Made by a program: the position numbers and the translations under genes. Positions 5,597 to 58,135 of a stretch of 64,000 bases of DNA are shown piece by piece; position 1 is the stretch's first letter; every line of letters begins with the position of its first letter. The notes under the pieces are model-generated. The model did not search any database. It was not told the DNA's origin and saw only the letters and a program-made list of their open reading frames with translations. The DNA is from an uncultured Clostridia bacterium. Lineage in GTDB: Bacteria > Bacillota > Clostridia > Oscillospirales > CAG-272. The DNA lies in the NCBI GenBank assembly GCA_947588825.1, contig CANPZU010000002.1, forward strand, positions 12,750 to 76,749. The letters are read 5' to 3'.

Positions 5597-6034
5597 TTAT
5601 ATCACATAATTGTTCATGTATTTTTCACGCTGCTGGTCGAGTATGTCTTGAAGTGTAATTGAATCAAGATACTCGTTTATAACCTTGTAAAGCCCTTGCC
5701 ATACCGGAAGCGTCGCACAGTCGGCACTCCTCTCACATTCCATTTCCCCGTTTCCAAGACACGCAACAGGCGATAGACTTCCCTCCGTAAGACGCAGTAT
5801 GTCGCCCACTGAGTATTTGTCGGGAGATCTTGAAAGCCGATACCCTCCCTGAAATCCTCTGTTCGTTTTTAAAAAATCGCCTTGGTTGAATAAAGGAACA
5901 ATCTGCTCAAGATATTTTTTCGATATGTTCTGACGCTGCGCTATCTCCTTGAGCGATACGTATCCCGCACTTTGATGCTCGGCAAGGTCAATAAGCATCC
6001 GTAACGCATATCGACCTTTTGTGGAAATCATCAT
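5597..6034 (-). CDS. Rrf2-family transcriptional regulator (CymR/IscR-like)
   Basis: MMISTKGRYALRMLIDLAEH..SLKEIAQRQNISKKYLEQI.. is the typical Rrf2 wHTH. Start placed at the ATG after a GGGGAG RBS. Confidence 0.85.
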   Translation of the reverse strand: MMISTKGRYALRMLIDLAEHQSAGYVSLKEIAQRQNISKKYLEQIVPLFNQGDFLKTNRGFQGGYRLSRSPDKYSVGDILRLTEGSLSPVACLGNGEMECERSADCATLPVWQGLYKVINEYLDSITLQDILDQQREKYMNNYVI

Positions 6035-6185
6035 TTTTATCACAACTCCCCACATATTTTTTCACTTTATGATAACATATTTTTTTCCGCCTTTCAAGCC
6101 TTTATACGAAAATTTGTGACCAATATTCATCTCCCGCACCGTCGGATGAAAAAACGTCCCGTTGGTCAAAATATATCGCCCTTTC

Positions 6186-6263
6186 GGGGAGCTTTTTGAA
6201 AAAAGCCTCCCCGAACCCCTGCAAAAACTTTAAAACTATAAAGACAGCCGCGTTTGTGCGACC
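6186..6263 (+). repeat. Repeat module A, copy 1
   Basis: GGGGAGCTTTTTGAAAAAAGCCTCCCC hairpin, GAACCCCTGCAAAAACTTTAAAACT, then a CCGCGTTTGTGCG hairpin. Near-identical at 12804, 57172 and, inverted, at 21245 and 21337. Confidence 0.85.
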
Positions 6264-6270
6264 TTTTCTG

Positions 6271-6453
6271 CTTTATAAACCTTAGAGTGGAATCTTCATT
6301 AGCGCGGACGCTCTGCCGCCCTTCGGGCGTGCAGAGTCAGGAGAAAGGGGTACGGCGTCGGGGGAAAGCGAGCTTTCACCGAGTCGTCGTACCCCTTTCT
6401 CCTGACCTTGCGGGGCAAAGCCCCGCAAGGCCCGCCGCGCCGCACTACGGTTT
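6271..6453 (+). repeat. Repeat module C, copy 1 (three consecutive stem-loops)
   Basis: CTTTATAAACCTTAGAG...CGCACTACGGTTT. Homologous to 57257-57440 (+) and 21056-21239 (-). Confidence 0.85.
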
Positions 6454-6466
6454 CTTTATTTAATTT

Positions 6467-6690
6467 GTTTCCCCGGCTTTTCAAAAGCCGGCGGGTCGAG
6501 GGCAGAGCCCCGTCGCGCCCGCAGGCGCGAAAGGCCCTTAAATAAGCGATGCACGCAAATAAGGCATCCGTGCCGCGCTGCGGTTTACTTTGTTTGTTTC
6601 CCCGGCTTTTTATAAAGCCGGCGACGGTCAAGGGCGAGGAGCCCTTGTCGCGCCCGCAGGCGCGAAAGGCCCATTAATAAGCGATGCGTA
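6467..6690 (+). repeat. Repeat module B, two tandem units
   Basis: Each unit has a CCGGCTTTT.AAAAGCCGG hairpin, a GGGC..GCCC hairpin and a CGCGCC-CGCA-GGCGCG hairpin. Unit cores lie at 6467-6533 and 6596-6668. Confidence 0.85.
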
Positions 6691-6755: not shown

Positions 6756-8978
6756 TTATTCCTCATCGTTTCTATCGCCGCCTCTGCGCGAGGGGAAGCG
6801 AGGACCGCGTTTTTTATCACTGCCGCGATCAAACGAGCGAGGTTTTCTATCCTCATGGCCTTCGGGTTTAGGAAGAGAGGCCTTAACGGAGAGGTTAATT
6901 CTACCCTTATCATCCACGCCGAGGTACATAACGGTGACGATATCGCCCTCGTTAACGACGTCCTCGACCTTTTCGACAAAGCTATAGGAGAGGTCTTTGA
7001 TATGGCACATACCCTCTTTACCGGGGGCGAACTCGATGAAAGCGCCGATAGGGATAATTCTTGTGACCTTACCGGTATAAATAGCGCCAATTTCCGGTTC
7101 GAAGCAGATATCGTCTATCATTTTCTTTGCTGCCAATGCGCCGTCGCGGTTAACGGAAGCGATATAGATAGTACCGTCCTCTTCGATATCGATTTTAGCT
7201 CCGGTATCGGCGGTAATTTTTTGGATAACCTCGCCGCCCTTACCGATGACCTCGCGAATTTTTTCCGTCTTAATATGCATAGTGATCATCTTAGGAGCGT
7301 TTTCAGCGACCTCAGCTCTCGGCTCAGGGATACATTTAGTGATTATTTCGTCGATAATATATTCTCTGCCGCGGCGAGTTTTATCGAAGGCGGACCTGAT
7401 TATTTCAGGTGTAAGGCCGTCGATTTTAAGATCCATCTGAATAGAGGTTATACCCTTATGGGTACCGGCGACCTTAAAATCCATATCGCCGTAAAAGTCC
7501 TCGACGCCCTGGATATCGATCATTGTATCCCAGCTTCCGTCCTCAGCGGTTATAAGGCCGCAGGAGATACCGGCTACAGGGGCTTTAATCGGGACGCCTG
7601 CTGCCATAAGTGCGAGAGTGGAGCCGCAGACGGAGGCCTGAGAGGTGGAGCCGTTAGAGCTAATGACCTCAGAGACAAGGCGAATGGCGTAAGGAAATTC
7701 TTCAACAGAGGGAAGAACGGGGAGCAATGATCTTTCGGCGAGTGCGCCGTGGCCTATTTCTCTTCTTCCGGGGCTGCGCACTGCCTTAGCCTCGCCGGTA
7801 GAAAAGCCGGGCATATTATAATGGTGCATATATCGTTTAGAGGTTTCCTCATCGATGGTATCGAGTTCTTGCGCGTCGGATATTATACCGAGTGTAGCGA
7901 CGGTGAGAACCTGAGTTTGACCTCTGGTAAACATACCCGAGCCATGGACTCTGGGCAGCAGGTCGACCTCCGCCGCGAGCGGGCGAATGGTATCCATACT
8001 TCTTCCGTCAACTCTTTTTTTATCGACAAGAAGCCATCTGCGCACTATTTTCTTTTGGATTTTATATACGAGTTCGGGCATCATTGCCTCAAGTCCCTCG
8101 TACTTTTCGGAAAATTCAGCAAGGATTGCATCCTGTATCGGCACCATACGGGCGTCTCTTACCGTCTTATCATCGGTATCCATGGCGTACATGACGTCCT
8201 TTTCGCAGAAGGCAAATATCTCGTCGAACATATCGTGATCCAACTCGCAAGAGGGGTACTCGAACTTAGGCTTGCCGACCTCGCTCACAATACCGTCGAT
8301 AAAGGTACAAAGTGTTTTTATCACCTCGTGGGCCTTCATTATAGCGTCGAACATTGTATCGTCGTCCACTTCATTTGCGCCCGCCTCGATCATTACCACT
8401 TTTTCATGCGAACCGGCAACGGTGAGCTGAAGATCGGACCTCTTTCTCTGTTCGGAGGTAGGATTGACTACAAGCTCATTGTCGACAAGGCCCATGAAAA
8501 CGCCGGCGATAGGGCCGTTCCACGGGATATCGGATATTGAAAGGGCGATGGACGTACCGATCATAGCGGTTATTTCGGGCGAGCAATCGTGATCCACGCT
8601 GAGAACCATAAGATTGATTGCGACGTCGTTACGAAGGTCTTTGGGAAATAGGGGTCTTATGGGGCGGTCGATCACGCGGCTTGTCAATATTGCCTTTTCG
8701 CTGGGTCTTCCCTCGCGGCGGGTATAGCCGCCGGGAATTCTGCCGACAGCGTACATTTTTTCATCGAAATCCACCGAAAGGGGGAGAAAATCGATACCGT
8801 CTCTCGGCTTTGCGGAAGCTGTGGCGGTGGCGAGGATAACTGTTTCCCCATAGCTCACAAGGCAAGAGCCGTTTGCAAGGCCGGCCATCTTACCCGTCTC
8901 AACTTTAAGCGTTCTTCCCGCTAAAGTTGTTTCAAACACTCGATAGTTTTTAAACTGCATTATTTCTGACATTGCCAT
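6756..8978 (-). CDS. pnp: Polyribonucleotide nucleotidyltransferase (PNPase)
   Basis: Full-length PNPase architecture by eye: two RNase PH-like regions, then KH and S1 at the C-terminus (..GKVTRIIPIGAFIEFAPGKEGMCHIKDLS..). The start is ambiguous among ATGs at 8978, 8972 and 8960. Confidence 0.92.
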   Translation of the reverse strand: MAMSEIMQFKNYRVFETTLAGRTLKVETGKMAGLANGSCLVSYGETVILATATASAKPRDGIDFLPLSVDFDEKMYAVGRIPGGYTRREGRPSEKAILTSRVIDRPIRPLFPKDLRNDVAINLMVLSVDHDCSPEITAMIGTSIALSISDIPWNGPIAGVFMGLVDNELVVNPTSEQRKRSDLQLTVAGSHEKVVMIEAGANEVDDDTMFDAIMKAHEVIKTLCTFIDGIVSEVGKPKFEYPSCELDHDMFDEIFAFCEKDVMYAMDTDDKTVRDARMVPIQDAILAEFSEKYEGLEAMMPELVYKIQKKIVRRWLLVDKKRVDGRSMDTIRPLAAEVDLLPRVHGSGMFTRGQTQVLTVATLGIISDAQELDTIDEETSKRYMHHYNMPGFSTGEAKAVRSPGRREIGHGALAERSLLPVLPSVEEFPYAIRLVSEVISSNGSTSQASVCGSTLALMAAGVPIKAPVAGISCGLITAEDGSWDTMIDIQGVEDFYGDMDFKVAGTHKGITSIQMDLKIDGLTPEIIRSAFDKTRRGREYIIDEIITKCIPEPRAEVAENAPKMITMHIKTEKIREVIGKGGEVIQKITADTGAKIDIEEDGTIYIASVNRDGALAAKKMIDDICFEPEIGAIYTGKVTRIIPIGAFIEFAPGKEGMCHIKDLSYSFVEKVEDVVNEGDIVTVMYLGVDDKGRINLSVKASLPKPEGHEDRKPRSFDRGSDKKRGPRFPSRRGGDRNDEE

Positions 8979-9120
8979 AATTAATTTACTGCCTTTCATT
9001 ATTTTTTCACAACGCACAAGCCGGAATAGGAATAGTAGACGTCAAAAAAGCTTTTTTTGACATTTATTATTCATATTCTCTTGCAAGTGCGCCGGGCTAA
9101 GCTGTATTTTGTCGTGCGTC

Positions 9121-10868: not shown

Positions 10869-12704
10869 TCAAACAAATTCTACGTCAAATATATCACACC
10901 ACGATGAAAATTGATAAAGCCACGCCATAAGCTGCGGCCTTGACATAAGCTGACCGAACCATGTGACATTTTCCCCGCCGTTTTCAATAAGCGAGTATAC
11001 CTTGCTTTTGTCGATAAGCTCGCAAAACAAATTGTCCTTGTCAAGACAGGAAGAAAGCAGCTTTTTAACCTCTTTCTCGTATTCGGGAGAGTGCGTCTTG
11101 GGGTAAGGACTCTTCTTTCTGTAAAGAATGTTGTCCGGCAGAAGATTTTTAAGCCCCGCTCCTTTGCGAAGCAGCGCTTTCTCTACCCCGCCTTCAAATT
11201 TTATCTCCCACGGTACGTTGTATACGTACTCTATTATTCTGTGATCTGCAAATGGTACCCTTACCTCCAAAGAGGACGCCATGCTCATCCTGTCCTTGCG
11301 GCAGAGCAAATGCTGCATGAAAAAAGCAGTCGATAAAACCGTAGCTCGCCTTGCCACCTTCGTTTCCTCACTGTCCGTATCAAGACAGGGCGCGCTTTCA
11401 ACGGTCTTTTTGTAGAGCGCCGACATGTAATCGTACCCTTCCCTTGAGCAAACCGCCTCCTCGCGAAAAAGCCTGCTTCTCGCATAAGGATCGTGTATCC
11501 ACGGGAAAAAGTCTCGCTCAAGCATCTCTCTGCGGTAAAACCACGGGTACCCGCCGAATATCTCGTCGCTGCATTCGCCTGAAAGAGCAACCGTGTGTCT
11601 TTTCCTGACAAGCGAACAGTAGTAAAGCAGCGAAGAATCTATGTCCGCTTGACCGGGATAGTCCCTTGCAATTACCGCGCCGTATAAACAGTCGGCAACC
11701 GCTTTGTTTGAGGCGGTCAGAACCGTGTGCTCGGTTCCGAGCTCTTTTGCAAGATCCTTTGCGTACTCGTCGTCACTCGCCGGCTGAAATAAAGTGTTCT
11801 TAAAGTTTTCTTTGTTGTTTTCATACTCGAATGAGTAACTTGACAGCTTCTCTCCTCTCTCGCCTAAAATCCGTGCGCCGATCGACGTGATTACAGATGA
11901 ATCAAGTCCGCCCGAAAGGAACGTGCACAGCGGTACGTCACTCACAAGCTGCCTCTTCACCGCATCCCATAATAACTCTATCGTCTTTTCCGCAGCATCC
12001 TTCGCATTGTCCCTGTTCTCCTTCGCCTCAAGCTGCCAGTACTTCCATATCCGCATGCCGCACCTGTCAATAACGGCATTCTCCCCCGGCGCTATCTCCT
12101 TTATGTCTCTGAAAATATCACTGCCGGGAATCGTCGAAGGCGATAAAAACAAAAGCTGCCATATACCCCTTTTGTCTACCTTCGGCTTTATCACTCCCCC
12201 TTTTATAAACGCCTTGCTCTCCGACGCAAAGTATACTTTGTCCCCGGTCCTTGCATAAAACAACGGCTTTACCCCAAGCCTGTCACGACTGAGATATACC
12301 TTGTTCTCGGCTTTGTCATATACCGCAAACGCATATATCCCGTTGAGTAAACGCGAACATAACTCCTTGTGCAAAATGTACGCCCATAATACTACCTCCG
12401 TGTCACACTCGGTACGAAAAATCGCGCCAAGCTCCTTAAACGCTCTGCGCAGCTCGGGCGCATTGTATATCTCTCCGTTGTATACTATCGTGTATTCCCT
12501 GCCTCTGAAGCTCACGCTCATCGGCTGAGAACCGTTCTCAATGTCAATTACGGCAAGACGGTTGTGCGCTAAACATACATTGCCATCCTCATAAATGCCT
12601 TTGGCGTCCGGCCCTCGGTGACACATCGTCTCACTCATCCGCAAAACCGACTCCCTCACGGCCGCCCCGCCGCTGATGTCGTATGATCCGCATATCGAAC
12701 ACAT
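10869..12704 (-). CDS. asnB: Asparagine synthase (glutamine-hydrolysing)
   Basis: Start set at MCSICG (N-terminal Cys nucleophile, ATG 12704). The PP-loop ..FLSGGLDSS.. is present. Confidence 0.88.
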   Translation of the reverse strand: MCSICGSYDISGGAAVRESVLRMSETMCHRGPDAKGIYEDGNVCLAHNRLAVIDIENGSQPMSVSFRGREYTIVYNGEIYNAPELRRAFKELGAIFRTECDTEVVLWAYILHKELCSRLLNGIYAFAVYDKAENKVYLSRDRLGVKPLFYARTGDKVYFASESKAFIKGGVIKPKVDKRGIWQLLFLSPSTIPGSDIFRDIKEIAPGENAVIDRCGMRIWKYWQLEAKENRDNAKDAAEKTIELLWDAVKRQLVSDVPLCTFLSGGLDSSVITSIGARILGERGEKLSSYSFEYENNKENFKNTLFQPASDDEYAKDLAKELGTEHTVLTASNKAVADCLYGAVIARDYPGQADIDSSLLYYCSLVRKRHTVALSGECSDEIFGGYPWFYRREMLERDFFPWIHDPYARSRLFREEAVCSREGYDYMSALYKKTVESAPCLDTDSEETKVARRATVLSTAFFMQHLLCRKDRMSMASSLEVRVPFADHRIIEYVYNVPWEIKFEGGVEKALLRKGAGLKNLLPDNILYRKKSPYPKTHSPEYEKEVKKLLSSCLDKDNLFCELIDKSKVYSLIENGGENVTWFGQLMSRPQLMAWLYQFSSWCDIFDVEFV

Positions 12705-12803
12705 ATATAGCAAATTTCCTTTCAAATAGTATTCCTTCTCAGTATATGCCGTATCCGACCGTCGGGATACATTTCGAAAAAACGGATCGCTCGGTTTTTT
12801 TTC

Positions 12804-12917
12804 GGGGAGCTTTTTGAAAAAAGCCTCCCCGAACCCCTGCAAAAACTTTAAAACTGCTAATACGGCCGCGTTTGTGCGGCCCCTTCGCGCCCGCAGGCGC
12901 GAAATCCCCTAAATAAG
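12804..12917 (+). repeat. Truncated repeat element: module A joined directly to the last hairpin of module B
   Basis: 12804-12881 matches module A. 12882-12917 reads CCTTCGCGCCCGCAGGCGCGAAATCCCCTAAATAAGG, which is the B 3' end. Confidence 0.8.
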
Positions 12918-12948
12918 GCTTCATACAAAAGCGCGGTGTCGAATTATA

Positions 12949-15902: not shown

Positions 15903-17351
15903 ATGAAACTGTATAATTCACTGACAAGACAAAAGGAAGAATTCACGCCAAAGGACCCCGAGCATGTCGGCATGTACACCTGCGGTCCCACCGTCTATCA
16001 CTTTGCCCACATAGGCAACCTGCGCAGCTACATCATGGAGGATATTCTCGACAGGTATATAAGATATCTCGGCTACGGACTTAAAAGAGTGATGAACATT
16101 ACCGACGTCGGACACCTCTCAAGCGACGGCGATACCGGCGAGGACAAAATGTTAAAGGGCGCAAAACGCGAGCACAAAAGCGTTATGGACATTGCATCCT
16201 TCTACACCAAGGCGTTTTTTGAGGACTGTGCCAAACTGAATATCAGAAAGCCCGACGTAATCGAACCTGCCACCGCGTGTATTGGCGACTTTATCAAGGC
16301 GATAAAAATCCTTGAGCAAAAGGGCTACGCCTATCAGGCGGGCGGAAACATCTATTTTGACACCTCAAAGCTTGAAAAATACTACGTCTTCAACGATTTT
16401 TCGCAGGAAGACCTTGCAATCGGCGTTCGCGAGGGCGTCGAGGCCGACGCAAATAAGAAAAACCCGGCTGATTTTGTCCTGTGGTTCACCAAATCCAAGT
16501 TTGAGGACCAAGAGCTGAAATGGAACAGTCCTTGGGGGCTCGGCTATCCCGGTTGGCATATAGAATGCTCCTGCATAAGCATGAAGCACCTTAAAGACCA
16601 CCTTGATATCCACTGCGGAGGCATAGACAACGCTTTTCCTCACCACACAAATGAAATAGCCCAAAGCGAGGCGCTGATCGGACACAAATGGTGCGATCTT
16701 TGGTTCCACGTGCATCACCTTAATACAGGCGGCGGCAAAATGAGCAAATCCTCCGGCGAGTTTCTGACCGTCTCGCTTCTTGAAGAAAAGGGATTCGACC
16801 CGCTTGCATATCGCTTTTTCTGCCTTCAGTCGCATTACCGCAAATCGCTCCTCTTTACATGGGAAAACCTTGAAAACGCGGCAAACGCCTACTCAAAGCT
16901 TGTAACGAAGGTCGCCTCCCTGCTTGAGCAACAACCAAATGCCGAAAAGATGAACGTCCTTAGCGATAAAGCCGCAAAAGACCCCGCATTTATCGCCTGC
17001 CGCGCCGCCTTCACCGACGCTCTTGATAACGACCTTAACACATCCCTGGCCGTGACCGCGCTTTACGACGTGTTTAAATCCGACGCCTCCCCCGAGATAA
17101 AGCTTGCCCTTAGCTGTGACTTTGACAGGGTGCTCGCGCTTGACCTTGTTCCCCACGCCCAAAAGCTTTTGCTCGACAAGGCAGCCGAACATGTCGACAA
17201 ACAGTGGGTAGAGGAGCTTATACAAAAACGTAACGACGCTAAAGCGGAAAAAAATTACGCCGCCGCCGACGCAATTCGCGCCGAGCTGCTTAAAAACAAT
17301 ATCGTCCTTCAGGATACGCCAAACGGCACAAAATGGTCTGTTAAGGCTTAA
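15903..17351 (+). CDS. cysS: Cysteine--tRNA ligase
   Basis: 482 aa with a HIGH-type motif (FAHIGNLRSY) and KMSKS (GKMSKSSG). Confidence 0.95.
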   Translation: MKLYNSLTRQKEEFTPKDPEHVGMYTCGPTVYHFAHIGNLRSYIMEDILDRYIRYLGYGLKRVMNITDVGHLSSDGDTGEDKMLKGAKREHKSVMDIASFYTKAFFEDCAKLNIRKPDVIEPATACIGDFIKAIKILEQKGYAYQAGGNIYFDTSKLEKYYVFNDFSQEDLAIGVREGVEADANKKNPADFVLWFTKSKFEDQELKWNSPWGLGYPGWHIECSCISMKHLKDHLDIHCGGIDNAFPHHTNEIAQSEALIGHKWCDLWFHVHHLNTGGGKMSKSSGEFLTVSLLEEKGFDPLAYRFFCLQSHYRKSLLFTWENLENAANAYSKLVTKVASLLEQQPNAEKMNVLSDKAAKDPAFIACRAAFTDALDNDLNTSLAVTALYDVFKSDASPEIKLALSCDFDRVLALDLVPHAQKLLLDKAAEHVDKQWVEELIQKRNDAKAEKNYAAADAIRAELLKNNIVLQDTPNGTKWSVKA

Positions 17352-17429
17352 TCATAAGATTTTTTGAAAAAATCCACGCCTTAAAACCTTTGCAGCAATA
17401 ACAAAGCCAAATCAAAGCCAAAAAACAAA

Positions 17430-17463
17430 GCTCAGCCTTTTTCGGTTGAGCCTTGTTTTTTTG
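17430..17463 (+). terminator. Intrinsic terminator after cysS
   Basis: GCTCAGCC-tttttc-GGTTGAGC followed by CTTGTTTTTTTT. Confidence 0.6.
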
Positions 17464-17539
17464 ACAGACCGTTTAATCTGCCTTTTATCTTTTATATGAA
17501 GAATCCGTTAAAATACGTCTATGATCGACGCTTATAACT

Positions 17540-18982
17540 TCAACGGTTTGCTCTTCTCTTTGTAGCGACCACGGCAAGACCGAGAGTCGATACAAGCGCG
17601 AGAACGATTATTGCAAGAGAAGCGTCGCCTGTTTCTGCGGGGCCTTGGCCGCCTGTACCTGTGCCTTCACCGCCTGTACCTGTGCCTTCGCCGCCTGTAC
17701 CTGTGCCTTCACCGCCTGTGGTGGGAGGAGTGATGGTATAAGCCGTTCCGTTATACTCTACACCGTCTGCGAGCGCGTCATATGTCACGTCACCGGTAAA
17801 CATAGCTATCTCACTAATCTGGAAGTAGCCGCCGTTGCCTTTGTTGGCAGTGATTTCTATGGTGTAGTAAGCGTAAGCCTTCGTAGCGTTCAGATTGAAA
17901 ATGAAATACATTTCACTAACAGCACTAATCTTAGCGTCGGTTGTTTCGAACACCTTAACGCCTTTTTCGGTCGCGGAGTCGGAGCCGTAAACTGTAAATG
18001 CTTTGGGAGCTCTGCCCGGGTAATCTTTATCATCGTGAGTTCCAAAGGCTATGTACTTCGGAGCACCCGCGGCAGTATCGGCCTTGAAGGTGATTGTAAC
18101 ACCCGCTTCAGGGAAATTACCCTCAATCTTTTTGGAGAGATCGCCGTCAAACAAAACCTTTCTGTCTTTATCTTTATCGAATTTGTCCGTTGTGCCGGTA
18201 GTAACTACTTCTGCATCGGACAGAGTCACCTTGGTACCATTTTTAGGAGCAAAGACAGTGGAAGAATTGATTGTCGCTGAAAAGCAGGTAGCGTTGTCGT
18301 TTGCGTCGGTATAAGTGAACTCAAGCAGAGAATAAGTTGTAACATAGTTTTCAGCCTTAAATATGTACAGCTTATCGCCGGCGTCGGTAGTCTTTATGTC
18401 GTCTACAACAAACTGGCCCTGATTGTCCCTATCTGATCTACCCTTTTTGCATTCGTCGTGAGTTTCGCCAACGACCGTCGTGCCTTTGGCAAGCTTGGGA
18501 TCGGTGTTGAAGATAATCTCGGCGGTTACGGTTTTGGCCTTGGTGTCAGCCGTTACCTTTGCATACTTTGTTCCCCATGCGGCATATTGAGAGGTAAATG
18601 TTTTCTCATAAACCTCGCCGTTGGGCATTGTAAGCTTAAGCTTGTTTTGGTCGTCCTTGGTCAAATCGGCGCCGACAATACCAAGCTGCAAAGAACTCTT
18701 GGTAATGTTATTATTGTCTCTGAGCTGGCAATGCGCGTAGCCGAGGTAACCGATATTCCAATACGCGGGTTTGCCGTTTACTTCGACCTTGATGTCCTCG
18801 AGCTTTTCGGCAATGGTCTTGTTAAAGTGCACGTCGCCCTCGACAAATCCGTGGTCTGCCTTGACGTTCTCGCTTGTGGGTGCAAGAGCGGGATCGTCAG
18901 CGGCAAACGCTGAAAGCGCACAAGGAACAATCATGATACATGCAAGAAGCATAGCAAGAATTGTTTTGAATGATCTTTTCAT
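17540..18982 (-). CDS. Secreted cell-surface protein with C-terminal sortase-type anchor (PAETG + TM + KRRANR)
   Basis: The N-terminal signal peptide is MKRSFKTILAMLLACIMIVPCALSAFA. The C-terminus is (GGEGTGT)x3..GPAETGDASLAIIVLALVSTLGLAVVATKRRANR. The central region resembles a discoidin/F5-8-type-C carbohydrate-binding module (tentative). Confidence 0.6.
   Translation of the reverse strand: MKRSFKTILAMLLACIMIVPCALSAFAADDPALAPTSENVKADHGFVEGDVHFNKTIAEKLEDIKVEVNGKPAYWNIGYLGYAHCQLRDNNNITKSSLQLGIVGADLTKDDQNKLKLTMPNGEVYEKTFTSQYAAWGTKYAKVTADTKAKTVTAEIIFNTDPKLAKGTTVVGETHDECKKGRSDRDNQGQFVVDDIKTTDAGDKLYIFKAENYVTTYSLLEFTYTDANDNATCFSATINSSTVFAPKNGTKVTLSDAEVVTTGTTDKFDKDKDRKVLFDGDLSKKIEGNFPEAGVTITFKADTAAGAPKYIAFGTHDDKDYPGRAPKAFTVYGSDSATEKGVKVFETTDAKISAVSEMYFIFNLNATKAYAYYTIEITANKGNGGYFQISEIAMFTGDVTYDALADGVEYNGTAYTITPPTTGGEGTGTGGEGTGTGGEGTGTGGQGPAETGDASLAIIVLALVSTLGLAVVATKRRANR
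17649..17720 (-). repeat. In-frame 21-bp tandem repeat x3 encoding GGEGTGT
   Basis: ccgcctgtacctgtgccttca repeated at 17649, 17670 and 17691. Confidence 0.85.
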
Positions 18983-19193
18983 ATCATCTTATCCTCCTTA
19001 AATTCAGACGGGCGGATACACTTTTGCCCGTCTCGGTTAGCTTTATTTTATAAGATAATTAACAAAAAGTCAATACTTTTGCAAAATAATTCTACTTTGC
19101 GCTCCAAATTCCGCATTTTAAACAAAAGTGAAGAATGGTTTTTGTGCATTATTACCATAGACAGGGAAAAAGGCAAACAGAACGGCCGATCAA

Positions 19194-19205
19194 GAACATT
19201 TGTTC
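19194..19205. promoter_or_regulatory. LexA (SOS/Cheo) box GAACATTTGTTC
   Basis: Perfect GAAC-N4-GTTC palindrome upstream of lexA. Confidence 0.75.
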
Positions 19206-19239
19206 ACAAAATGTTTACACAAATTGCTTAGAAAGAGGA

Positions 19240-19251
19240 GAACAACTGTTT
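19240..19251. promoter_or_regulatory. Second, degenerate LexA box GAACAACTGTTT overlapping the lexA -35
   Basis: GAAC-N4-GTTT. It overlaps the TTGAAA -35 hexamer. Confidence 0.5.
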
Positions 19252-19278
19252 GAAATTTTTTTTAAAGTGTGCTACAAT
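19250..19278 (+). promoter_or_regulatory. lexA promoter (TTGAAA-17-TACAAT)
   Basis: TTGAAAttttttttaaagtgtgcTACAAT. Confidence 0.5.
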
Positions 19279-19363
19279 TAGGTTAAACGACGCGGAACGC
19301 TCCTTAAGAGAGCGTACTTTAGTAAATTCGCGCGTCTTTGGAATGAAAGGCAGGTAAAACGCC

Positions 19364-19984
19364 ATGGCGCAGCTGACGTCCACAGAAAAGAAAATATACG
19401 AATATATATCCGAAACCATTCGCCGCGAGGGCTATCCCCCGACGGTGCGCGATATCCAACAGTCGCTTTCTATCCGCTCGACCTCAACGGTGCACTCCTA
19501 CCTTGAAAAGCTGGAGGCAAAAGGCGTCATAACCCGCCGGTCGGGAAAAAGCCGCTCAATGAGACTCAGCAGCGAAACGGGCGAAGAGAAAAAAACCGCT
19601 AAGGTGCCCGTCGTCGGAACGGTCGCCGCCGGAACTCCTATACTTGCCGAGGAAAACATCGAATCTTATATCGAATTTCCCCTTGTAAAAAGATCCTATA
19701 ACGCCTCCTCCCTCTTCGCACTCAGGGTAAAAGGAGAAAGCATGATCGAGGCCGGTATTATGGATGGAGATACCGTCGTCGTGGAACGCTGCTCAGTCGC
19801 TCAAAACGGCTCCATCGTCGTCGCCCTTGTCGACGAGGTCGACGGACCTTCCGCAACCGTCAAGACTTTTTATAAGGAAAATAACCACTACAGACTGCAG
19901 CCCGAAAACAGCGAGATGGACCCTATTATCGTAAGCGACGTTACCGTGCTCGGCAGAGTAATATCCGTCATGAGATTTTATTGA
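19364..19984 (+). CDS. lexA: LexA repressor (SOS regulator, S24 autopeptidase)
   Basis: MAQLTSTEKKIYEYI..GYPPTVRDI.. (wHTH), ..VAAG.P.. cleavage region, and ..GESM..GI.DGD... Confidence 0.92.
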   Translation: MAQLTSTEKKIYEYISETIRREGYPPTVRDIQQSLSIRSTSTVHSYLEKLEAKGVITRRSGKSRSMRLSSETGEEKKTAKVPVVGTVAAGTPILAEENIESYIEFPLVKRSYNASSLFALRVKGESMIEAGIMDGDTVVVERCSVAQNGSIVVALVDEVDGPSATVKTFYKENNHYRLQPENSEMDPIIVSDVTVLGRVISVMRFY

Positions 19985-20011
19985 TATATCGGTCTATAAT
20001 ATAGATATAGT

Positions 20012-20824
20012 ATGAAAAATAAAAAACCTGTCCGTACTTTCAAAAATGAGGCTTCCCGGTTCTGCAAAAAGAGCGTGTACCTGCTCTCCTTTGCCTCTTC
20101 CGCAATACTTTTGCTTCTGTCCGATCTGTATCTGCTCTTTATAGCTAACTTCGGCACAACCTCGGTTTTTATAACAATATATTATTACTTTACCCAACTT
20201 TTGTCCGTCTCTGCGTTTTTCGCCCTCGTCTCAATATCGATATATACCTACTTCGCGGGTAATATGCCCGCCTTCGCACATTCGCTCACAATGAACGCCC
20301 TCTCCTCGGTCTTCGTCTCCGTCCTCGCAAACTCGCTTATCATCTGGCTCCTTGCCTTCGCCGATCAAAACCTCGACCTCCCCTTTTCCGTCAGTAACTA
20401 TTCTTTGACCGAGCTTAACGAAAACGGCCTTATCTATATTATGTCTATGTCCTTCATGAGCGTTCTCTCTCTCTTTCTCGTCGTTCTTGTCTCGTTTCTC
20501 ATTTTAAGAACGGTTAAACGTAAATACGTCAAAAATTATACCGACCTCTCACTTGACGCCCTTGCAAACAGCTCCAGTCCTGATTTCCCCTTGAAAACCC
20601 CCGCCGCCGTCTTTGCCGGCTGCTTCGCACTCGTCAGCTTTCTCTTTCAGGCCCTCGATACCTTGACAACCGTAACCGATATCGGAACCCCTGAATACGT
20701 AAACGACTATATTTACCTCATGACTCCTTACTTTATGTTGGTTATATATACCCTCGCGGGTTACTTCGTCATGCAGTACTTTATAAACTACTTCGCTAAA
20801 AAAACGCTCGACCTTTCAAAATAA
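20012..20824 (+). CDS. Hypothetical polytopic membrane protein (27 nt downstream of lexA)
   Basis: 270-aa ORF with several long hydrophobic segments. No recognisable family, and no clear RBS before the ATG at 20012. Confidence 0.45.
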   Translation: MKNKKPVRTFKNEASRFCKKSVYLLSFASSAILLLLSDLYLLFIANFGTTSVFITIYYYFTQLLSVSAFFALVSISIYTYFAGNMPAFAHSLTMNALSSVFVSVLANSLIIWLLAFADQNLDLPFSVSNYSLTELNENGLIYIMSMSFMSVLSLFLVVLVSFLILRTVKRKYVKNYTDLSLDALANSSSPDFPLKTPAAVFAGCFALVSFLFQALDTLTTVTDIGTPEYVNDYIYLMTPYFMLVIYTLAGYFVMQYFINYFAKKTLDLSK

Positions 20825-20839
20825 CGGCCGGGCGCTTTT

Positions 20840-21055
20840 GTTTGTAGCTGCAAATATGAGATTTCGCGCCTGCGGGCGCGACGGGGCTCTGCCCTCGACC
20901 CGCCGGCTTTTGAAAAGCCGGGGAAATAAATAGAACAAACCGTAGTGCAGCGCGCATGTCGCTTGTTGAGGAATCTTTCGCGCCTGCGGGCGCGACAAGG
21001 GCTCCTCGCCCTTGACCGTCGCCGGCTTTTAAAAAGCCGGAGAAATAAATAGAGT
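20840..21055 (-). repeat. Repeat module B, two tandem units (inverted orientation)
   Basis: TTTCGCGCCTGCGGGCGCG..CCGGCTTTTGAAAAGCCGG at 20862-20927 and 20976-21045 is the reverse complement of 6467-6690. Confidence 0.85.
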
Positions 21056-21239
21056 AAACCGTAGTGCGGCGCGGCGGCCTTGCGTGGGCAAAGCCTACGC
21101 AAGGTCAGAGCAGGAGGGTACGGCGTCGGGGGAAAGCGAGCTTTCACCGAGTCGCCGTACCCTTCTGCACTGACTCTGCACGCCCGAAGGGCGGCAGAGC
21201 GTCCGCGCTAATGAAGATTCTGCTCTAAGGTTTATAAAG
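21056..21239 (-). repeat. Repeat module C, inverted copy (with flipped hairpin loops)
   Basis: Reverse complement of the 6271-6453 and 57257-57440 flanks. The central loops are in the same + strand orientation as the direct copies. Confidence 0.85.
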
Positions 21240-21244
21240 TGAAG

Positions 21245-21322
21245 GGCCGCACAAACGCGGCCGTCTTAGTAGTTCTGAAGTTTTTGAAGGGGTTCGGGGA
21301 GGCTTTTTTCAAAAAGCTCCCC
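21245..21322 (-). repeat. Repeat module A, inverted copy a
   Basis: GGCCGCACAAACGCGGCC..GGGGAGGCTTTTTTCAAAAAGCTCCCC. Confidence 0.85.
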
Positions 21323-21336
21323 GAGAAGAGCAAAGA

Positions 21337-21415
21337 GGCCGCACGAACGCGGCCGTCTTGGCAGTTTTGAAGTTTTTGAAGGGGTTCGGGGAGGCTTTTT
21401 TTCAAAAAGCTCCCC
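21337..21415 (-). repeat. Repeat module A, inverted copy b (abuts the ldh stop codon)
   Basis: GGCCGCACGAACGCGGCC..GGGGAGGCTTTTTTTCAAAAAGCTCCCC. It ends 8 nt from the ldh stop. Confidence 0.85.
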
Positions 21416-21422
21416 GAGACGA

Positions 21423-22376
21423 TCAAAGTTTAAGTCCGGCGAAGGTATCTCTAAGGAGGGTACAGGAGCGGTCGAACTTATCGAGTTCAGACTGAGTCAT
21501 AGAGATAGGGAGGACTTTTTGAGCGCCGTTACGGCTGACTATTGTCGGGACACCGACAAAGACGCCGCCCGACTGGCCGAACTCGCCGCGGAGCATTGAG
21601 GAGACGGTGAGGATACTGCGTTCATCGCCGAAAATAGCGCGAGTGATTCTAACGAGTGACATACCGATACCGTAATAGGTAGCCTTTTTAGCGTCGATGA
21701 TTTTTTGAGCGGCGGAGCGGACTTCAAAGGCAATATTTTCAAGGTCGTCTATACTGAAGTTACTGATTTCGGTTGTATACTCAAGCACGGGTTTAGTAGC
21801 GATAAGGGCCTGTGACCAAGGCACGAACTCGCTGTCACCATGTTCGCCCATCACATAGGCGTGTACGTTACGCGGGTCGACCGAGAAGAAGTCGCCGAGG
21901 AGGTAGCGCAGTCTTGCGGTATCGAGGGTAGTACCTGAGCCGATCACATGTTTAGGATTAAAGCCGGAGAGCTCGCAGGTAATGCGGGTCATTATATCAA
22001 CGGGGTTAGTAGCGACGAGAAAGATACCGTTAAAATCAGAATCCACCACGGGGTTCACGACCGAGCGAAACACCTCGGTATTGCGCTGAAGCAAATCAAG
22101 GCGGGACTCGCCCGGTTTTTGAGCCACGCCGGCGCAGATAACGACGATATCGGCGTCCGCGCAGTCGCTGTACTTACCCGCGTAAATTTTCATATGCGAG
22201 CCTGAAAACGCGAGGCCGTGGCTTAGGTCCATAGCCTCTCCGGCGGCTCTTTTTTCATCTATATCGATAAGCACAAGTTCATCGCACGCGTTCTGATTGA
22301 GCAGTGCGTAAGCGTAGCTCATACCGACCATACCCGCGCCGACCAAAACCACTTTTCTGTTATCTCTTGACATCAT
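21423..22376 (-). CDS. ldh: L-lactate dehydrogenase
   Basis: ..KVVLVGAGMVGMSYAYAL.. (Rossmann GxGxxG), ..ATNPVD.., ..GEHGDSE... Confidence 0.92.
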   Translation of the reverse strand: MMSRDNRKVVLVGAGMVGMSYAYALLNQNACDELVLIDIDEKRAAGEAMDLSHGLAFSGSHMKIYAGKYSDCADADIVVICAGVAQKPGESRLDLLQRNTEVFRSVVNPVVDSDFNGIFLVATNPVDIMTRITCELSGFNPKHVIGSGTTLDTARLRYLLGDFFSVDPRNVHAYVMGEHGDSEFVPWSQALIATKPVLEYTTEISNFSIDDLENIAFEVRSAAQKIIDAKKATYYGIGMSLVRITRAIFGDERSILTVSSMLRGEFGQSGGVFVGVPTIVSRNGAQKVLPISMTQSELDKFDRSCTLLRDTFAGLKL

Positions 22377-26821: not shown

Positions 26822-26875
26822 GGCGCCTCCAAAGCAAAACGCACCCAAAAGGGTGCATTTTGCTTTGGAGGCGCC
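26822..26875 (-). terminator. 25-bp hairpin at the end of the tRNA operon; one arm includes the last 10 nt of tRNA-Cys
   Basis: The minus-strand RNA reads GGCGCCUCCAAAGCAAAAUGCACCC-UUUU-GGGUGCGUUUUGCUUUGGAGGCGCC. The single non-Watson-Crick position is U.G only on the minus strand. Confidence 0.6.
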
Positions 26876-26939
26876 ACCCGGAATCGGACCGGGGATAAAG
26901 GTTTTGCAGACCTCTGCCTTACCGCTTGGCTATGGCGCC
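26866..26939 (-). tRNA. tRNA-Cys (GCA), CCA-encoded, discriminator U73
   Basis: GGCGCCATAGCCAAGCGGTAAGGCAGAGGTCTGCAAAACCTTTATCCCCGGTCCGATTCCGGGTGGCGCCTCCA. Cloverleaf read by eye. Confidence 0.9.
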
Positions 26940-26978
26940 TTTTTTGACAAGAACCACGCAACGCGTGGTTCTTAAAAA

Positions 26979-27054
26979 TGGAGCGGATTACGGGGCTCGA
27001 ACCCGCCACCTCCACCTTGGCAAGGTGGCGCTCTACCAAATGAGCTAAATCCGC
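26979..27054 (-). tRNA. tRNA-Gly (GCC), CCA-encoded
   Basis: GCGGATTTAGCTCATTTGGTAGAGCGCCACCTTGCCAAGGTGGAGGTGGCGGGTTCGAGCCCCGTAATCCGCTCCA. Confidence 0.9.
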
Positions 27055-27092
27055 ATAAGACAGCCGTCGCGCGTCTTAATGACCGCAAACGG

Positions 27093-27168
27093 TGGTGCCT
27101 CCGGTCGGAATCGAACCAACGACACGGGGATTTTCAGTCCCCTGCTCTACCAACTGAGCTACAGAGGC
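27093..27168 (-). tRNA. tRNA-Phe (GAA), CCA-encoded
   Basis: GCCTCTGTAGCTCAGTTGGTAGAGCAGGGGACTGAAAATCCCCGTGTCGTTGGTTCGATTCCGACCGGAGGCACCA. Confidence 0.9.
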
Positions 27169-27196
27169 ATAGAAGTTAAATCTGCTAAAACAAAAA

Positions 27197-27273
27197 TGGC
27201 GACCCGGATGGGGCTCGAACCCACGACCTCTAGCGTGACAGGCTAGCGCTCTAACCAACTGAGCTACCAGGCC
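27197..27273 (-). tRNA. tRNA-Asp (GTC), CCA-encoded
   Basis: GGCCTGGTAGCTCAGTTGGTTAGAGCGCTAGCCTGTCACGCTAGAGGTCGTGGGTTCGAGCCCCATCCGGGTCGCCA. Confidence 0.9.
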
Positions 27274-27279
27274 ATATTA

Positions 27280-27355
27280 TGGTGGGAACAATAGGGCTCG
27301 AACCTATGACCCTCTGCTTGTAAGGCAGATGCTCTCCCAGCTGAGCTATGCTCCC
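27280..27355 (-). tRNA. tRNA-Val (TAC), CCA-encoded
   Basis: GGGAGCATAGCTCAGCTGGGAGAGCATCTGCCTTACAAGCAGAGGGTCATAGGTTCGAGCCCTATTGTTCCCACCA. Confidence 0.9.
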
Positions 27356-55445: not shown

Positions 55446-56024
55446 TCAGTATTTTTTCAAAACCGCCTTGCTTATTCTGCCGCTCAAAGTTAGAGCAAGC
55501 AGCATTTTGACGGCGTCCGGAATTATAAAGGGAAGCACGCAGACGGCAAAGGCGGCGCCAATGCCCACAGGAGCGCCGCTTTTCACACTAAGTATCACAT
55601 ACCAAACCGTCCCGAAAATGTACATAATGAGCGTGCCCGCCGTAAGCGACATGACCTTGACCCACGGCTTTTTTGAAATGAGCTCGGTAAAAGCAAGATA
55701 TGAAAGCGCGACAAATATAAAACCTACTATGTACCCGCCCGTAGTCTGAAAAAGCACGCCGATGCCTCCCCTAAAGCCCGTGAAAATCGGAAGCCCCGCC
55801 GCGCCGAGCGCTATATAAGCAAGTATGCAGACAAGACCGCGCCTGCCGCCGAGAAAGGACAGCGCAAAATATATCCCAAATGTCTGCATCGTGAAGGGAA
55901 TCGCAGACGGAACCGTAATAAACGTGCATAAACATATTATCGCCGTGCAAAACGCGCAAAGCGTCAAATTCTTTATTTTGTTTTCTTTCGCTCCCGATAT
56001 GTTCTTTGATCTGTATGCGCTCAT
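55446..56024 (-). CDS. bioY: Biotin transporter BioY
   Basis: ..IPFTMQTFGIYFALSFLG.. and ..TGGYIVGF... Confidence 0.88.
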   Translation of the reverse strand: MSAYRSKNISGAKENKIKNLTLCAFCTAIICLCTFITVPSAIPFTMQTFGIYFALSFLGGRRGLVCILAYIALGAAGLPIFTGFRGGIGVLFQTTGGYIVGFIFVALSYLAFTELISKKPWVKVMSLTAGTLIMYIFGTVWYVILSVKSGAPVGIGAAFAVCVLPFIIPDAVKMLLALTLSGRISKAVLKKY

Positions 56025-57013
56025 ACGCAGTCCCCCCTTTCTCTTATGCTTATCTCGCCCGCGGACAAAAACTCTCTCTCGCCGTCCTCATCGTATTCCA
56101 CCTCAAGACGGCATTCGTCATCTATCGAAAGCGCCGTCGCGGGACGCGAAATTCCTCCCGATATGACGTTTATTTTCTTGCCTACCGTGAAGTTGTACTT
56201 TCTGTAGAGCTCTGCCGCGTTTTGCCGGCTTTCATCCTTGTATAGGGTGTAAAAGTGCGAAAGAAAACGACCGATTATCCGACTCTTCGCAAACGATACG
56301 GCACTTTTCGCAAGACTCCCCGCAATCGGGGCGACTCCCTCGGGAAAACCGCCCGAAGGTTCGTAAACGTTCACCCCTACGCCGAGCACTATGTAATCGA
56401 CCGCCTTGGTCTCAAGATCCAGCACCGCCTCGGTCAGTATCCCGCATATCTTCTTGCCTTCGTAGTATACGTCGTTAACCCATTTAATTTCAGCGTTTGC
56501 CGAAAATGTCTCCCTCGCGGCAAGACATACGGCCGCCGCCGCCGCCGTCGTGACAAATACCGCTTGCTCTGCAGTGAGCTTCGGCCGAAGTAAAAGACTT
56601 AAATATACCCCGCTTTCCTTGGGAGAGTAAAAGGAACGCCCCATTCGCCCCCTGCCCTCGCTCTGCGAAAGCGCAATGAGCACCTTGCCTTCACTCTCGC
56701 CGCTCGCACCTTCCTCCTTGAGCACGGTGTTTGTCGAAGTTACCCTGTCCCGTATCTCTATTCTGTAAAAACTCCTTTTGTCAAAATCTATCGCATTCGT
56801 TATCCCCGTTTTCGATATGACATCCTCACATCCTGAAAGCATGTACCCGCGCCTTGGAACACTGCTTATCTCATGCCCCGCCTCACAAAGCGCCTTTACC
56901 GCCTTCCATACCGCATTCCGGCTCACTCCCAGTAATCCGGCAATCTCCTCGCCCGAAATGTATTCCCCCGCCCTTCTTTCAAGCTGCTCAAGTACCTTTT
57001 CCGTCGTTTTCAT
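56021..57013 (-). CDS. birA: Bifunctional biotin-[acetyl-CoA-carboxylase] ligase / biotin operon repressor
   Basis: N-terminal wHTH (..ISGEEIAGLLGVSRNAVWKAVKAL..) plus ..SQSEGRGRMGR.. (GRGRxGR biotin-binding loop). It overlaps bioY by 4 nt. Confidence 0.9.
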   Translation of the reverse strand: MKTTEKVLEQLERRAGEYISGEEIAGLLGVSRNAVWKAVKALCEAGHEISSVPRRGYMLSGCEDVISKTGITNAIDFDKRSFYRIEIRDRVTSTNTVLKEEGASGESEGKVLIALSQSEGRGRMGRSFYSPKESGVYLSLLLRPKLTAEQAVFVTTAAAAAVCLAARETFSANAEIKWVNDVYYEGKKICGILTEAVLDLETKAVDYIVLGVGVNVYEPSGGFPEGVAPIAGSLAKSAVSFAKSRIIGRFLSHFYTLYKDESRQNAAELYRKYNFTVGKKINVISGGISRPATALSIDDECRLEVEYDEDGEREFLSAGEISIRERGDCV

Positions 57014-57137: not shown

Positions 57138-57251
57138 CCGGCCGCGTTTGCGCGGCTCCTTCGCTCTTCTCGGGGAGCTTTTTGAAAAAAGCCTCCCCGA
57201 ACCCCTGCAAAAACTTTAAAACTGCCAAGACGGCCGCGTTTGTGCGGCTCC
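57138..57251 (+). repeat. Repeat module A, copy 4 (preceded by an extra GCCGCG-TTTG-CGCGGC hairpin)
   Basis: Near-identical to 6186-6263 and 12804-12881. Confidence 0.85.
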
Positions 57252-57256
57252 TTCGT

Positions 57257-57440
57257 TTTATAAACCTTAGAGCAGAATCTTCATTAGCGCGGCGAATGCT
57301 CTGTGCCCTTCGGGCGCAGAGTCAGGGCAAAAGGGTACGGCGTCGGGGGAAAGCGAGCTTTCACCGAGTCGCCGTACCCTTTTGCCCTGACCTTACGGCG
57401 GCAAAGCCGCCGCAAGGCACGCCGCGCCGCACTACGGTTT
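57257..57440 (+). repeat. Repeat module C, copy 4
   Basis: TTATAAACCTTAGAGCAGAATCTTCATTAGCGCGG...CGCACTACGGTTT. Confidence 0.85.
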
Positions 57441-57449
57441 ATACAGTTT

Positions 57450-57656
57450 GTTTCCCCCGCTTTTCAAAAGCCGGCGGGTCGAGGGCAGAGCCCCGTCGCG
57501 CCCGCAGGCGCGAAACACTCCTTAACAAGCCACGTGCGCGGTGCACTACGGCTTGTCTGATTTGTTTCCCCGGCTTTTCAAAAGCCGGCGGGTCGAGGGC
57601 AGAGCCCCGTCGCGCCCGCAGGCGCGAAACACTTTTTAACAAGCGACGTGCGGCGG
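57450..57656 (+). repeat. Repeat module B, two tandem units
   Basis: Cores at 57450-57515 and 57564-57630 are nearly identical to each other and to 6467-6533. Confidence 0.85.
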
Positions 57657-57700: not shown

Positions 57701-58135
57701 TTATTCGATCTCGATATTTTGAGGTGCTTCGACCTTCTTTTCGATTTTAGGCATACTCACTCTGAGGACGCCGTCGACATAGGAAGCCTTAATATTTTCG
57801 CTTTCGATACCCGAGATATCGAAGCTGCGAGAATATTTACCGTAAGAGCGTTCGATATGGGTATAACCTTTTTTCTTTTCGTTCTCCTCGTTTTCGCTTT
57901 TTCTTTCGGCGCTTATAGTAAGAAGGCCGCCTTCAACGCATATTTTTATATTTTCCTTTTTAAAGCCGGGAAGATCGGCGACAAGGACGTATTCATCTTC
58001 TTTTTCTCTGATATCGGTGCGGAACTCAGCGAGGGCGCGTCTTCTGTCGGTAAAGTTCCTTTCAAACTCATCAAAGAAAGCGAAAGGATCGTACGCTGAA
58101 TTATTTCTGTATCCGAAGGGTACAAGTTCAAACAT
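57701..58135 (-). CDS. Hsp20/alpha-crystallin small heat-shock protein
   Basis: 144 aa with ..DIREKEDEYVLVADLPGFKKENIKI.. and ..GVLRVSMPK... Confidence 0.9.
   Translation of the reverse strand: MFELVPFGYRNNSAYDPFAFFDEFERNFTDRRRALAEFRTDIREKEDEYVLVADLPGFKKENIKICVEGGLLTISAERKSENEENEKKKGYTHIERSYGKYSRSFDISGIESENIKASYVDGVLRVSMPKIEKKVEAPQNIEIE

Follow-up and report, generated by a model that had tools for sequence, protein, structure and literature searches.

In-place inversion of two hairpin spacers in an inverted copy of a modular intergenic repeat from an uncultured Clostridia bacterium, probably by template switching

The A-C-B composite repeat and its copies

The window, i.e., the whole stretch of 64,000 nucleotides that we have analyzed, has a G+C content of ~49% and belongs to an uncultured, gut-type, Ruminococcaceae/Oscillospiraceae-like bacterium, the closest named relative of its LDH being that of a Ruminococcaceae bacterium (74% identity). 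The GC skew stays negative or close to zero along the window, which thus lies within one replichore. Five tRNA genes are clustered within 490 bp on the minus strand (26869-27355). A composite repeat made of the modules A, C, and B is found at the following positions:

6183-6687, plus strand: composite repeat copy 1, with A (6183-6270), C (6271-6453), B (6454-6552), and B (6568-6687); neighbours are pnp (6756-9017, minus strand) and an Rrf2 regulator gene (5597-6055, minus strand)
12800-12930, plus strand: composite without C, in which module A is joined to the terminal hairpin of B alone
20862-21417, minus strand: composite repeat copy 2, inverted, with the minus-strand order A, A, C (21239-21056), B, B; neighbours are two convergent genes, a 270-aa gene of no known function (20012-20824, plus strand) and ldh (21423-22376, minus strand)
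57161-57646, plus strand: composite repeat copy 3, with A, C (57257-57440), B, B; neighbours are hsp20 (57701-58135, minus strand) and birA (56021-57013, minus strand)

All the composites are sited between open reading frames (ORFs), in the orders A-C-B-B, inverted A-A-C-B-B, A-C-B-B, and A plus partial B, and the genes flanking copies 1-3 are ordinary housekeeping genes. Since the composite at 12800-12930 contains A and a partial B but no C, C is an optional module. This shorter composite adjoins the start region of a long minus-strand ORF (10869-12842).

Module A comprises a GGGGAGC-T5-G-A6-GCCTCCCC hairpin plus a GGCCGCGTTTGTGCGGCC hairpin, module C extends over ~185 bp, and module B is present in one or two units. 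A motif similar to the 3' flank of C, GC(A/G)CT(A/G)CGG, usually followed by TTT, stands ahead of every full B unit, whether adjacent to C or not (6434-6453, 6553-6585, 20937-20956, 21056-21075, 57421-57440, and 57530-57550). At the C/B boundary as drawn in an earlier sequence-only reading of this DNA, the bordering motif may be part of B rather than of C.

In all three complete copies, C is embedded between A and B in constant relative order, and it carries three hairpins, i.e., H1, a 71-nt central hairpin, and H3:

6311-6336 and 57299-57321: H1 of copies 1 and 3, loop TTC on the plus strand
6336-6406: central 71-nt hairpin of copy 1, apical segment at 6358-6384
6406-6430: H3 of copy 1, loop AAA at 6417-6419
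21078-21104: H3 of copy 2, CCTTGCGTGGGC-AAA-GCCTACGCAAGG, loop at 21090-21092, reading TTT in the element orientation
21104-21174: central 71-nt hairpin of copy 2; the apical 27 nt sit on an outer stem of 21 positions, of which, on the plus strand, one is a G.T and one an A.A mismatch
21126-21152, plus strand: apical 27-nt segment of copy 2, reverse-complemented with respect to the rest of the element and read on the plus strand as in copies 1 and 3
21174-21199: H1 of copy 2, loop GAA on the plus strand, following the element orientation
57321-57391: central 71-nt hairpin of copy 3, apical segment at 57343-57369, outer stem perfectly paired
57391-57417: H3 of copy 3, loop AAA at 57403-57405

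The alignment of C with its own reverse complement revealed that the module as a whole is two-fold quasi-palindromic (6268-6458, 21052-21242, and 57254-57445), and thus its orientation rests on a few asymmetries only. Both ends are imperfect terminal inverted repeats, TATAAACC(T/G)TAG(A/T)GC (also given as TATAAACCKTAGWGC), H1 is similar to the reverse complement of H3, and a 13-nt insertion, AGAATCTTCATTA, lies in the left half. The junctions of C are T/A-rich, with no consistent target-site duplication in the three copies inspected.

The central 27-nt segment of copy 2 is reverse-complemented in place

The 27-mer TCGGGGGAAAGCGAGCTTTCACCGAGT occurs three times in the window, always on the plus strand and with 0 mismatches (6358-6384, 21126-21152, and 57343-57369), whereas no occurrence is expected in shuffled sequences; a search of the minus strand of the window with up to 3 mismatches gave no match. 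The sequence-only reading had reported this identical plus-strand reading in the three copies, and its coordinates and letters are exactly confirmed. The 5' flank GAATCTTCATTAGCGCGG, the 3' flank GCCGCGCCGCACTACGGTTT, and the modules A and B are oriented +, -, and + in copies 1, 2, and 3, respectively. When copies 1 and 3 were aligned with the reverse complement of copy 2, two discordant blocks appeared, the 27-mer and the H3 triloop. Therefore, in copy 2, the composite is inverted as a whole, and the 27-nt apical segment and the 3-nt H3 loop are additionally reverse-complemented in place. The flanks of copy 2, formerly described as an exact reverse complement of those of the other copies, are indeed of the same type, but they are not exact, since the stems of the C hairpins hold copy-specific differences that are mostly compensated.

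The 71-nt hairpin folds into an outer stem of 21-22 positions, a 2-nt bulge, 4 bp, a GG/A internal loop, 5 bp, and a CGAG tetraloop, with an RNA energy of about -50 to -55 kcal/mol (z about -9 to -11); the values for copy 2 are -49.7 kcal/mol on the plus strand and -45.5 on the minus strand (z about -9). The 27-nt segment makes up the apical third of this hairpin. It is asymmetric, as had been stated, but it is not the open loop that had been assumed, because it pairs internally (UCGG/CCGA and GAAAG/CUUUC, i.e., 4 bp + 5 bp, closed by the CGAG tetraloop). The asymmetry comes from the GU bulge, the GG/A internal loop, and the tetraloop, and since these three separate features flip as one block, the change amounts to the inversion of a segment rather than to point mutations or convergent substitutions. 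Nor is the flip a by-product of palindromy, since an ungapped comparison of the 27-mer with its reverse complement gives 17 mismatches (edit distance 10).

The segment is bounded by a perfect inner stem, GGGTACGGCG/CGCCGTACCC, of ~11 bp within the 21-22 bp stem, and the flip is an exact reverse complement that keeps the length and leaves the flanks collinear. The 47-nt core formed by the inner stem and the 27-mer is identical in all copies, and the outer arms are copy-specific.

The H3 triloop is flipped, but the other loops follow the element

In the element orientation, copies 1 and 3 have AAA as their H3 loop and copy 2 has TTT, and arms of 11-12 bp able to pair flank this loop. The earlier claim that this loop behaves like the 27-mer holds, AAA being found on the plus strand at all three sites. 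By comparing the remaining loops, we could also corroborate that the first C hairpin (TTC vs. GAA) and the loops of A and B simply follow the element: the hairpin loops of the five A and six full-length B copies all do so, and none of the other compared loops of the inverted composite (H1, two A, and two B units) is flipped. The proposal that two loops had been inverted between their palindromic arms agrees with these results, both being in-place reverse complements bounded by the arms. A single inversion spanning both hairpins would have altered the order H1-central-H3, which copy 2 retains, and was thus ruled out.

Across the stems of the C hairpins in the three copies (6311-6430, 21078-21199, and 57299-57417), five non-Watson-Crick positions are wobble pairs on one strand and mismatches on the other. 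According to a hand count, the G.T pair lies on the plus strand in four of them and on the minus strand in one, a sample too small to interpret.

A second assembly reproduces the flip

The ENA metaSPAdes contig L011 is 100% identical to the window over 17012-21164 and reproduces the flip at copy 2. Its path runs through the unique 270-aa gene, both B units, the 3' flank, the copy-2-specific H3, the copy-2 5' arm, and the plus-oriented 27-mer. Since this contig comes from the same strain as the window, it counts as a further assembly, but as a biological sample it is not independent. Copy 1 is spanned whole by L021, a second assembly of the window strain, and by L030, from a strain 99.6% identical to the window, and both agree with the window. 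To the left of the window start (~5 kb), L030 contains a toxin-antitoxin pair of the RelB/YafQ-ParE type (L030:11193-11740), which adjoins a PAPS-reductase/ParB-like gene pair.

An assembly or consensus artefact at a palindrome, which the sequence-only reading had named as a way in which the flip could lose its meaning, is hardly credible. It is true that the repeat is difficult to assemble: at each copy examined, the ENA metaSPAdes and Logan short-read assemblies (L005-L038 and L159-L165) stop within A, B, or C, the repeat family splits these assemblies into pieces of ~16 kb or less, and L011 shares its strain with the window. However, L011 joins the copy-2 H3 variant and the arm CAGAGCAGGAGGG to the plus-oriented 27-mer within tens of bases, i.e., less than a read or a large k-mer. 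In addition, the flipped segment is an exact reverse complement and not a noisy region, and the flipped H3 recurs at another locus in another strain (L161) and in an NCBI-derived ORF, both described below.

The same contigs bear on the possibility of a programmed inversion, i.e., an inverton or phase-variable switch in which a site-specific recombinase would act on the arms. Inverted repeats do bound the segment, which speaks for such a switch, but 27 bp or 3 bp are too short for the synapsis of two recombinase-bound sites. The known invertible promoter and shufflon segments measure at least tens to hundreds of bp, far longer than 27 bp. Moreover, the states are stable, copy 1 being the same in L021 and L030 and copy 2 the same in L011, the 27-bp and 3-bp segments contain no promoter-like site, and a promoter or coding consequence of the flip is not evident. 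We consider this explanation extremely improbable.

Two further copies separate the H3 flip from the central flip

A partial fourth copy of C was found on L161, ~1.1 kb past the right end of the window, in a contig of a strain with 99.83% identity to the window. The copy occupies L161:1-260 on the window minus strand, i.e., it is inverted like copy 2, and reads CCCTGA, CCTTGCGTAGGC-TTT-GCCCGCGCAAGG, 3' flank, B, B. The contig ends ahead of the central segment, whose state in this copy lies outside it; among the ENA contigs walked leftward, only B units were present at the contig end. The fourth copy is located upstream of a 1149-aa gene, the 3' part of which fills 61310-64000 of the window. 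The H3 hairpins of L161 and copy 2 are 1 nt apart, and both copies have the TTT loop, the GCGTAGGC arm, a 1-nt deletion, and the downstream spacer TTTACTCTATTT in common. Given that the flip is shared with the L161 copy, the H3 flip was inherited within a sub-family and not gained by copy 2 alone. Its presence in the sister copies 2 and 4, together with the fact that it breaks the left-right symmetry of C, suggests that the flipped H3 is the derived state.

The search of 5.8 billion proteins with the reverse-frame translation of the repeat yielded a sole match, P0121, an NCBI-sourced spurious ORF. The forward-frame translation of C gave no candidate in the protein search, and an exhaustive search of representative proteins found nothing related beyond P0121. 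The C-terminus of P0121, ...TVVRRGGPCAGKAYARSGQKGTATR-stop, and the minus-strand translation of copy 3, ...TVVRRGVPCGGFAAVRSGQKGTATR, are collinear. In the GKA of P0121 (GGN-AAR-GCN), which replaces the GFA of copy 3 in this frame, the H3 loop reads AAR from the side of the 3' flank and is thus flipped, and the stretch PCAGKAYAR is the exact translation of the L161 H3. Its GTATR-stop corresponds to GGTACGGCG-ACT-CGG-TGA, as on the minus strand of copy 3, and thus to a central segment that is not flipped. What is stated for this copy is deduced solely from back-translating the spurious ORF.

The comparison covers three complete copies, one partial copy, and one inferred from protein. If state I denotes a loop that follows the element and state II a flipped loop, the copies are as follows:

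Copies 1 and 3: H3 in state I, central segment in state I
Copy 2: H3 in state II, central segment in state II
Copy 4 (L161): H3 in state II, this being the one of the two loops that the contig covers
P0121 copy: H3 in state II, central segment in state I

The P0121 copy is discordant, with H3 flipped and the central segment not, and thus the aligned copies indicate that the two flips change independently and at different times.

Searches for the repeat elsewhere were negative within their respective scopes. The 5' flank 18-mer had 4 matches, all by chance, in 185,579 species genomes, a collection to which the present genome does not belong. Neither this 18-mer nor module A was found in viral contigs, the loop 22-mer was absent from viral contigs and JGI metagenomes, and the 3' flank 17-mer had 5 matches in viral contigs, all by chance and none real. 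The plasmid and phage collections gave no match to the repeat, and the 120 matches to a pattern of the stem alone, with 27 free spacer positions, were unrelated and of high GC. Among the LDH relatives with long contigs, the nearest ones (86% identity) differ in synteny and lack the element.

Are the flipped loops tied to a strand?

The sequence-only reading had also suggested that the two loops might be kept in a fixed absolute strand orientation, or be selected in minus-strand transcripts. In its general form, such a strand-specific constraint would demand that one or both loops read one way with respect to the transcribed strand or to the direction of replication, and flipped variants would be selected in inverted copies; in the case of the transcribed strand, an RNA loop would be recognized by a protein or by another RNA. 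The observed readings are those that a strand rule predicts, and they count against a template-switch origin: AAA of H3 lies on the plus strand in four of the four oriented copies (two forward and two inverted), and the central segment is identical on the plus strand in three of three. In addition, the whole window lies on one replichore, the plus-strand RNA fold is slightly better (-55.0 vs. -53.8 kcal/mol with perfect stems), and the wobble count given above, small as it is, leans to the plus strand (G.T in 4 of 5 positions, counted by hand). The three copies of the window are all downstream of minus-strand genes, as had been pointed out, but copy 2, located between convergent genes, is also downstream of a plus-strand gene.

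However, the P0121 copy contradicts any joint rule with one reference, whatever the orientation of that copy, and a fixed strand for both loops is therefore unsupported. The four-of-four agreement of H3 probably represents two lineages, because the H3 of copies 2 and 4 has a common origin, and the corresponding probability by chance is about 1 in 8. Neither H1 nor any of the A and B hairpin loops is strand-fixed. The two strands have equal DNA hairpin energies (-35.5 vs. -35.0 kcal/mol for the copy with the perfect stem, and -14.2 on both for H3 of copy 1), and thus there is no thermodynamic ground for a preferred orientation; an energetic explanation was ruled out on this basis. We have also ruled out a terminator explanation, since no canonical terminator includes these hairpins, and a known RNA family, since none matched, no Rfam family coming near its gathering score for the region.

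Taken together, these observations make a strand-specific constraint unlikely, and the agreement of both copy 2 flips with the forward copies on the plus strand is most likely a coincidence, the chance that both loops of copy 2 are flipped being about 1 in 4 for two independent two-state characters. These numbers are compatible with a constraint restricted to H3, which we likewise regard as unlikely. We give equally little credit to a genome-wide rule by which the H3 triloop, and possibly the central segment in most copies, would be fixed with respect to the replication or transcription strand. Under such a fixed-strand reading, the basis may be selection on a loop-specific interaction of RNA or single-stranded DNA, or a directional, hairpin-dependent flipping. 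Inverted insertions would then be 'corrected' by loop inversion, and an orientation-sensing feature would exist in an otherwise orientation-free repeat. Strand-fixed loops would imply a strand-specific function of the repeat hairpin, which the evidence does not favor.

Template switching or short-tract conversion

Short-tract gene conversion or templated repair would also explain an inverted spacer: an antiparallel copy, paired via the palindromic arms, would have donated its spacer in the opposite relative orientation. The uniform 47-nt core between copy-specific outer arms suggests an ongoing homogenization between copies, and the copies look mosaic, since in P0121 the H3 resembles that of copies 2 and 4 and the central arm that of copy 3. 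Against this stands the short homology available. The private arm variants of copy 2 are kept within 11 bp of the segment, and thus the antiparallel homology to a donor is only ~10 bp on each side of the 27-mer (11-12 bp for H3), whereas the parallel pairing of whole composites would extend over hundreds of bp and would flip nothing. Two separate events would be required as well. Conversion through the arms, which had been listed among the possible causes, is accordingly less likely, and we regard it as improbable, even if template switching and short-tract conversion are both compatible with these data.

The evidence favors another of the causes listed earlier, a template-switch or cruciform-mediated inversion, and we consider it probable that two independent inversions of inverted-repeat spacers took place by intra-hairpin template switching in this modular intergenic repeat. 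In this mechanism, the nascent strand would switch its template during replication from one hairpin arm to the other arm, or to itself, copy the spacer as its reverse complement, and then return, leaving the arms and the length unchanged. The comparison of the copies suggests that the H3 inversion would have come first, in an ancestor of the sub-family that holds copy 2 and its sister copy, and that the central segment would have been inverted later, in the lineage of copy 2 only. Both flips would be neutral. The copy-specific, largely compensated stems of the three C hairpins fit template switching, or else selection for pairing.

Bacterial rRNA hairpins are among the sites at which loops have been described to invert by template switching, and the documented inversions are mostly of 4-8 nt, a structured 27-nt spacer being at the long end (PMC8794818). 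The inversion of inverted-repeat spacers plus the homogenization of their arms has been described as well (PMC8604942).

The flips have consequences for the analysis of repeats. They mimic clusters of substitutions (17 mismatches in this case) and can mislead alignment-based dating or the classification of repeats into sub-families, and the hairpin tip alone is insufficient to call the 'orientation' of a palindromic repeat. The flip belongs to a known class of mutation, and a functional strand rule is not favored.

Related repeats and inversions

The BOX elements of Streptococcus pneumoniae, with the arrangement boxA-boxB(n)-boxC, and the BIME/REP mosaics of enterobacteria are modular repeats of comparable construction. 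Like them, the A-C-B repeat is built of short, hairpin-rich modules in fixed order, one repeated (here B) and one optional (here C), and it is strictly intergenic, present in both orientations, and mostly placed by the 3' ends of genes. Unlike them, it resides in an uncultured Clostridia lineage; no similarity was found to any Rfam family or to the plasmid, phage, and viral collections, and no associated transposase is known.

Module C taken separately resembles the bacterial MITEs, which include the Correia/NEMIS elements. It is small, multi-copy, and quasi-symmetric, with imperfect terminal inverted repeats and long hairpins when transcribed. It differs from them in that it was always found between A and B and has no known parent insertion sequence, and the junctions inspected show no consistent target-site duplication. 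As a working classification, we consider the repeat to be of the BOX/BIME type and C to be MITE-like; no described family was matched, and the A-C-B repeat family seems to be undescribed.

The flip/flop terminal hairpins of parvoviruses and the telomeres of poxviruses belong to linear replicons, at whose ends hairpin transfer generates them. As in copy 2, their hairpin isomers differ by the reverse complement of an asymmetric apical part, but the C hairpin is internal to a chromosome and shows no sign of nicking or terminal resolution.

The closest likeness is with the spacer inversions produced by template switching, and the 'minute inversions' at hairpins of plastid genomes are of the same kind. 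Here as there, the reverse complement arises in place between the arms, preserves the length, leaves the arms unchanged, and recurs at different hairpins. The differences are that the inversions described here lie between paralogous copies of a bacterial interspersed repeat and not between orthologues, that one of the spacers is structured and 27 nt long, and that the mechanism is inferred from the copies and not observed. The repeat thus offers a clean bacterial case of the inversion of inverted-repeat spacers, caught between paralogous repeat copies, which includes an unusually long spacer and in which two hairpins of one element appear to have flipped at different times.
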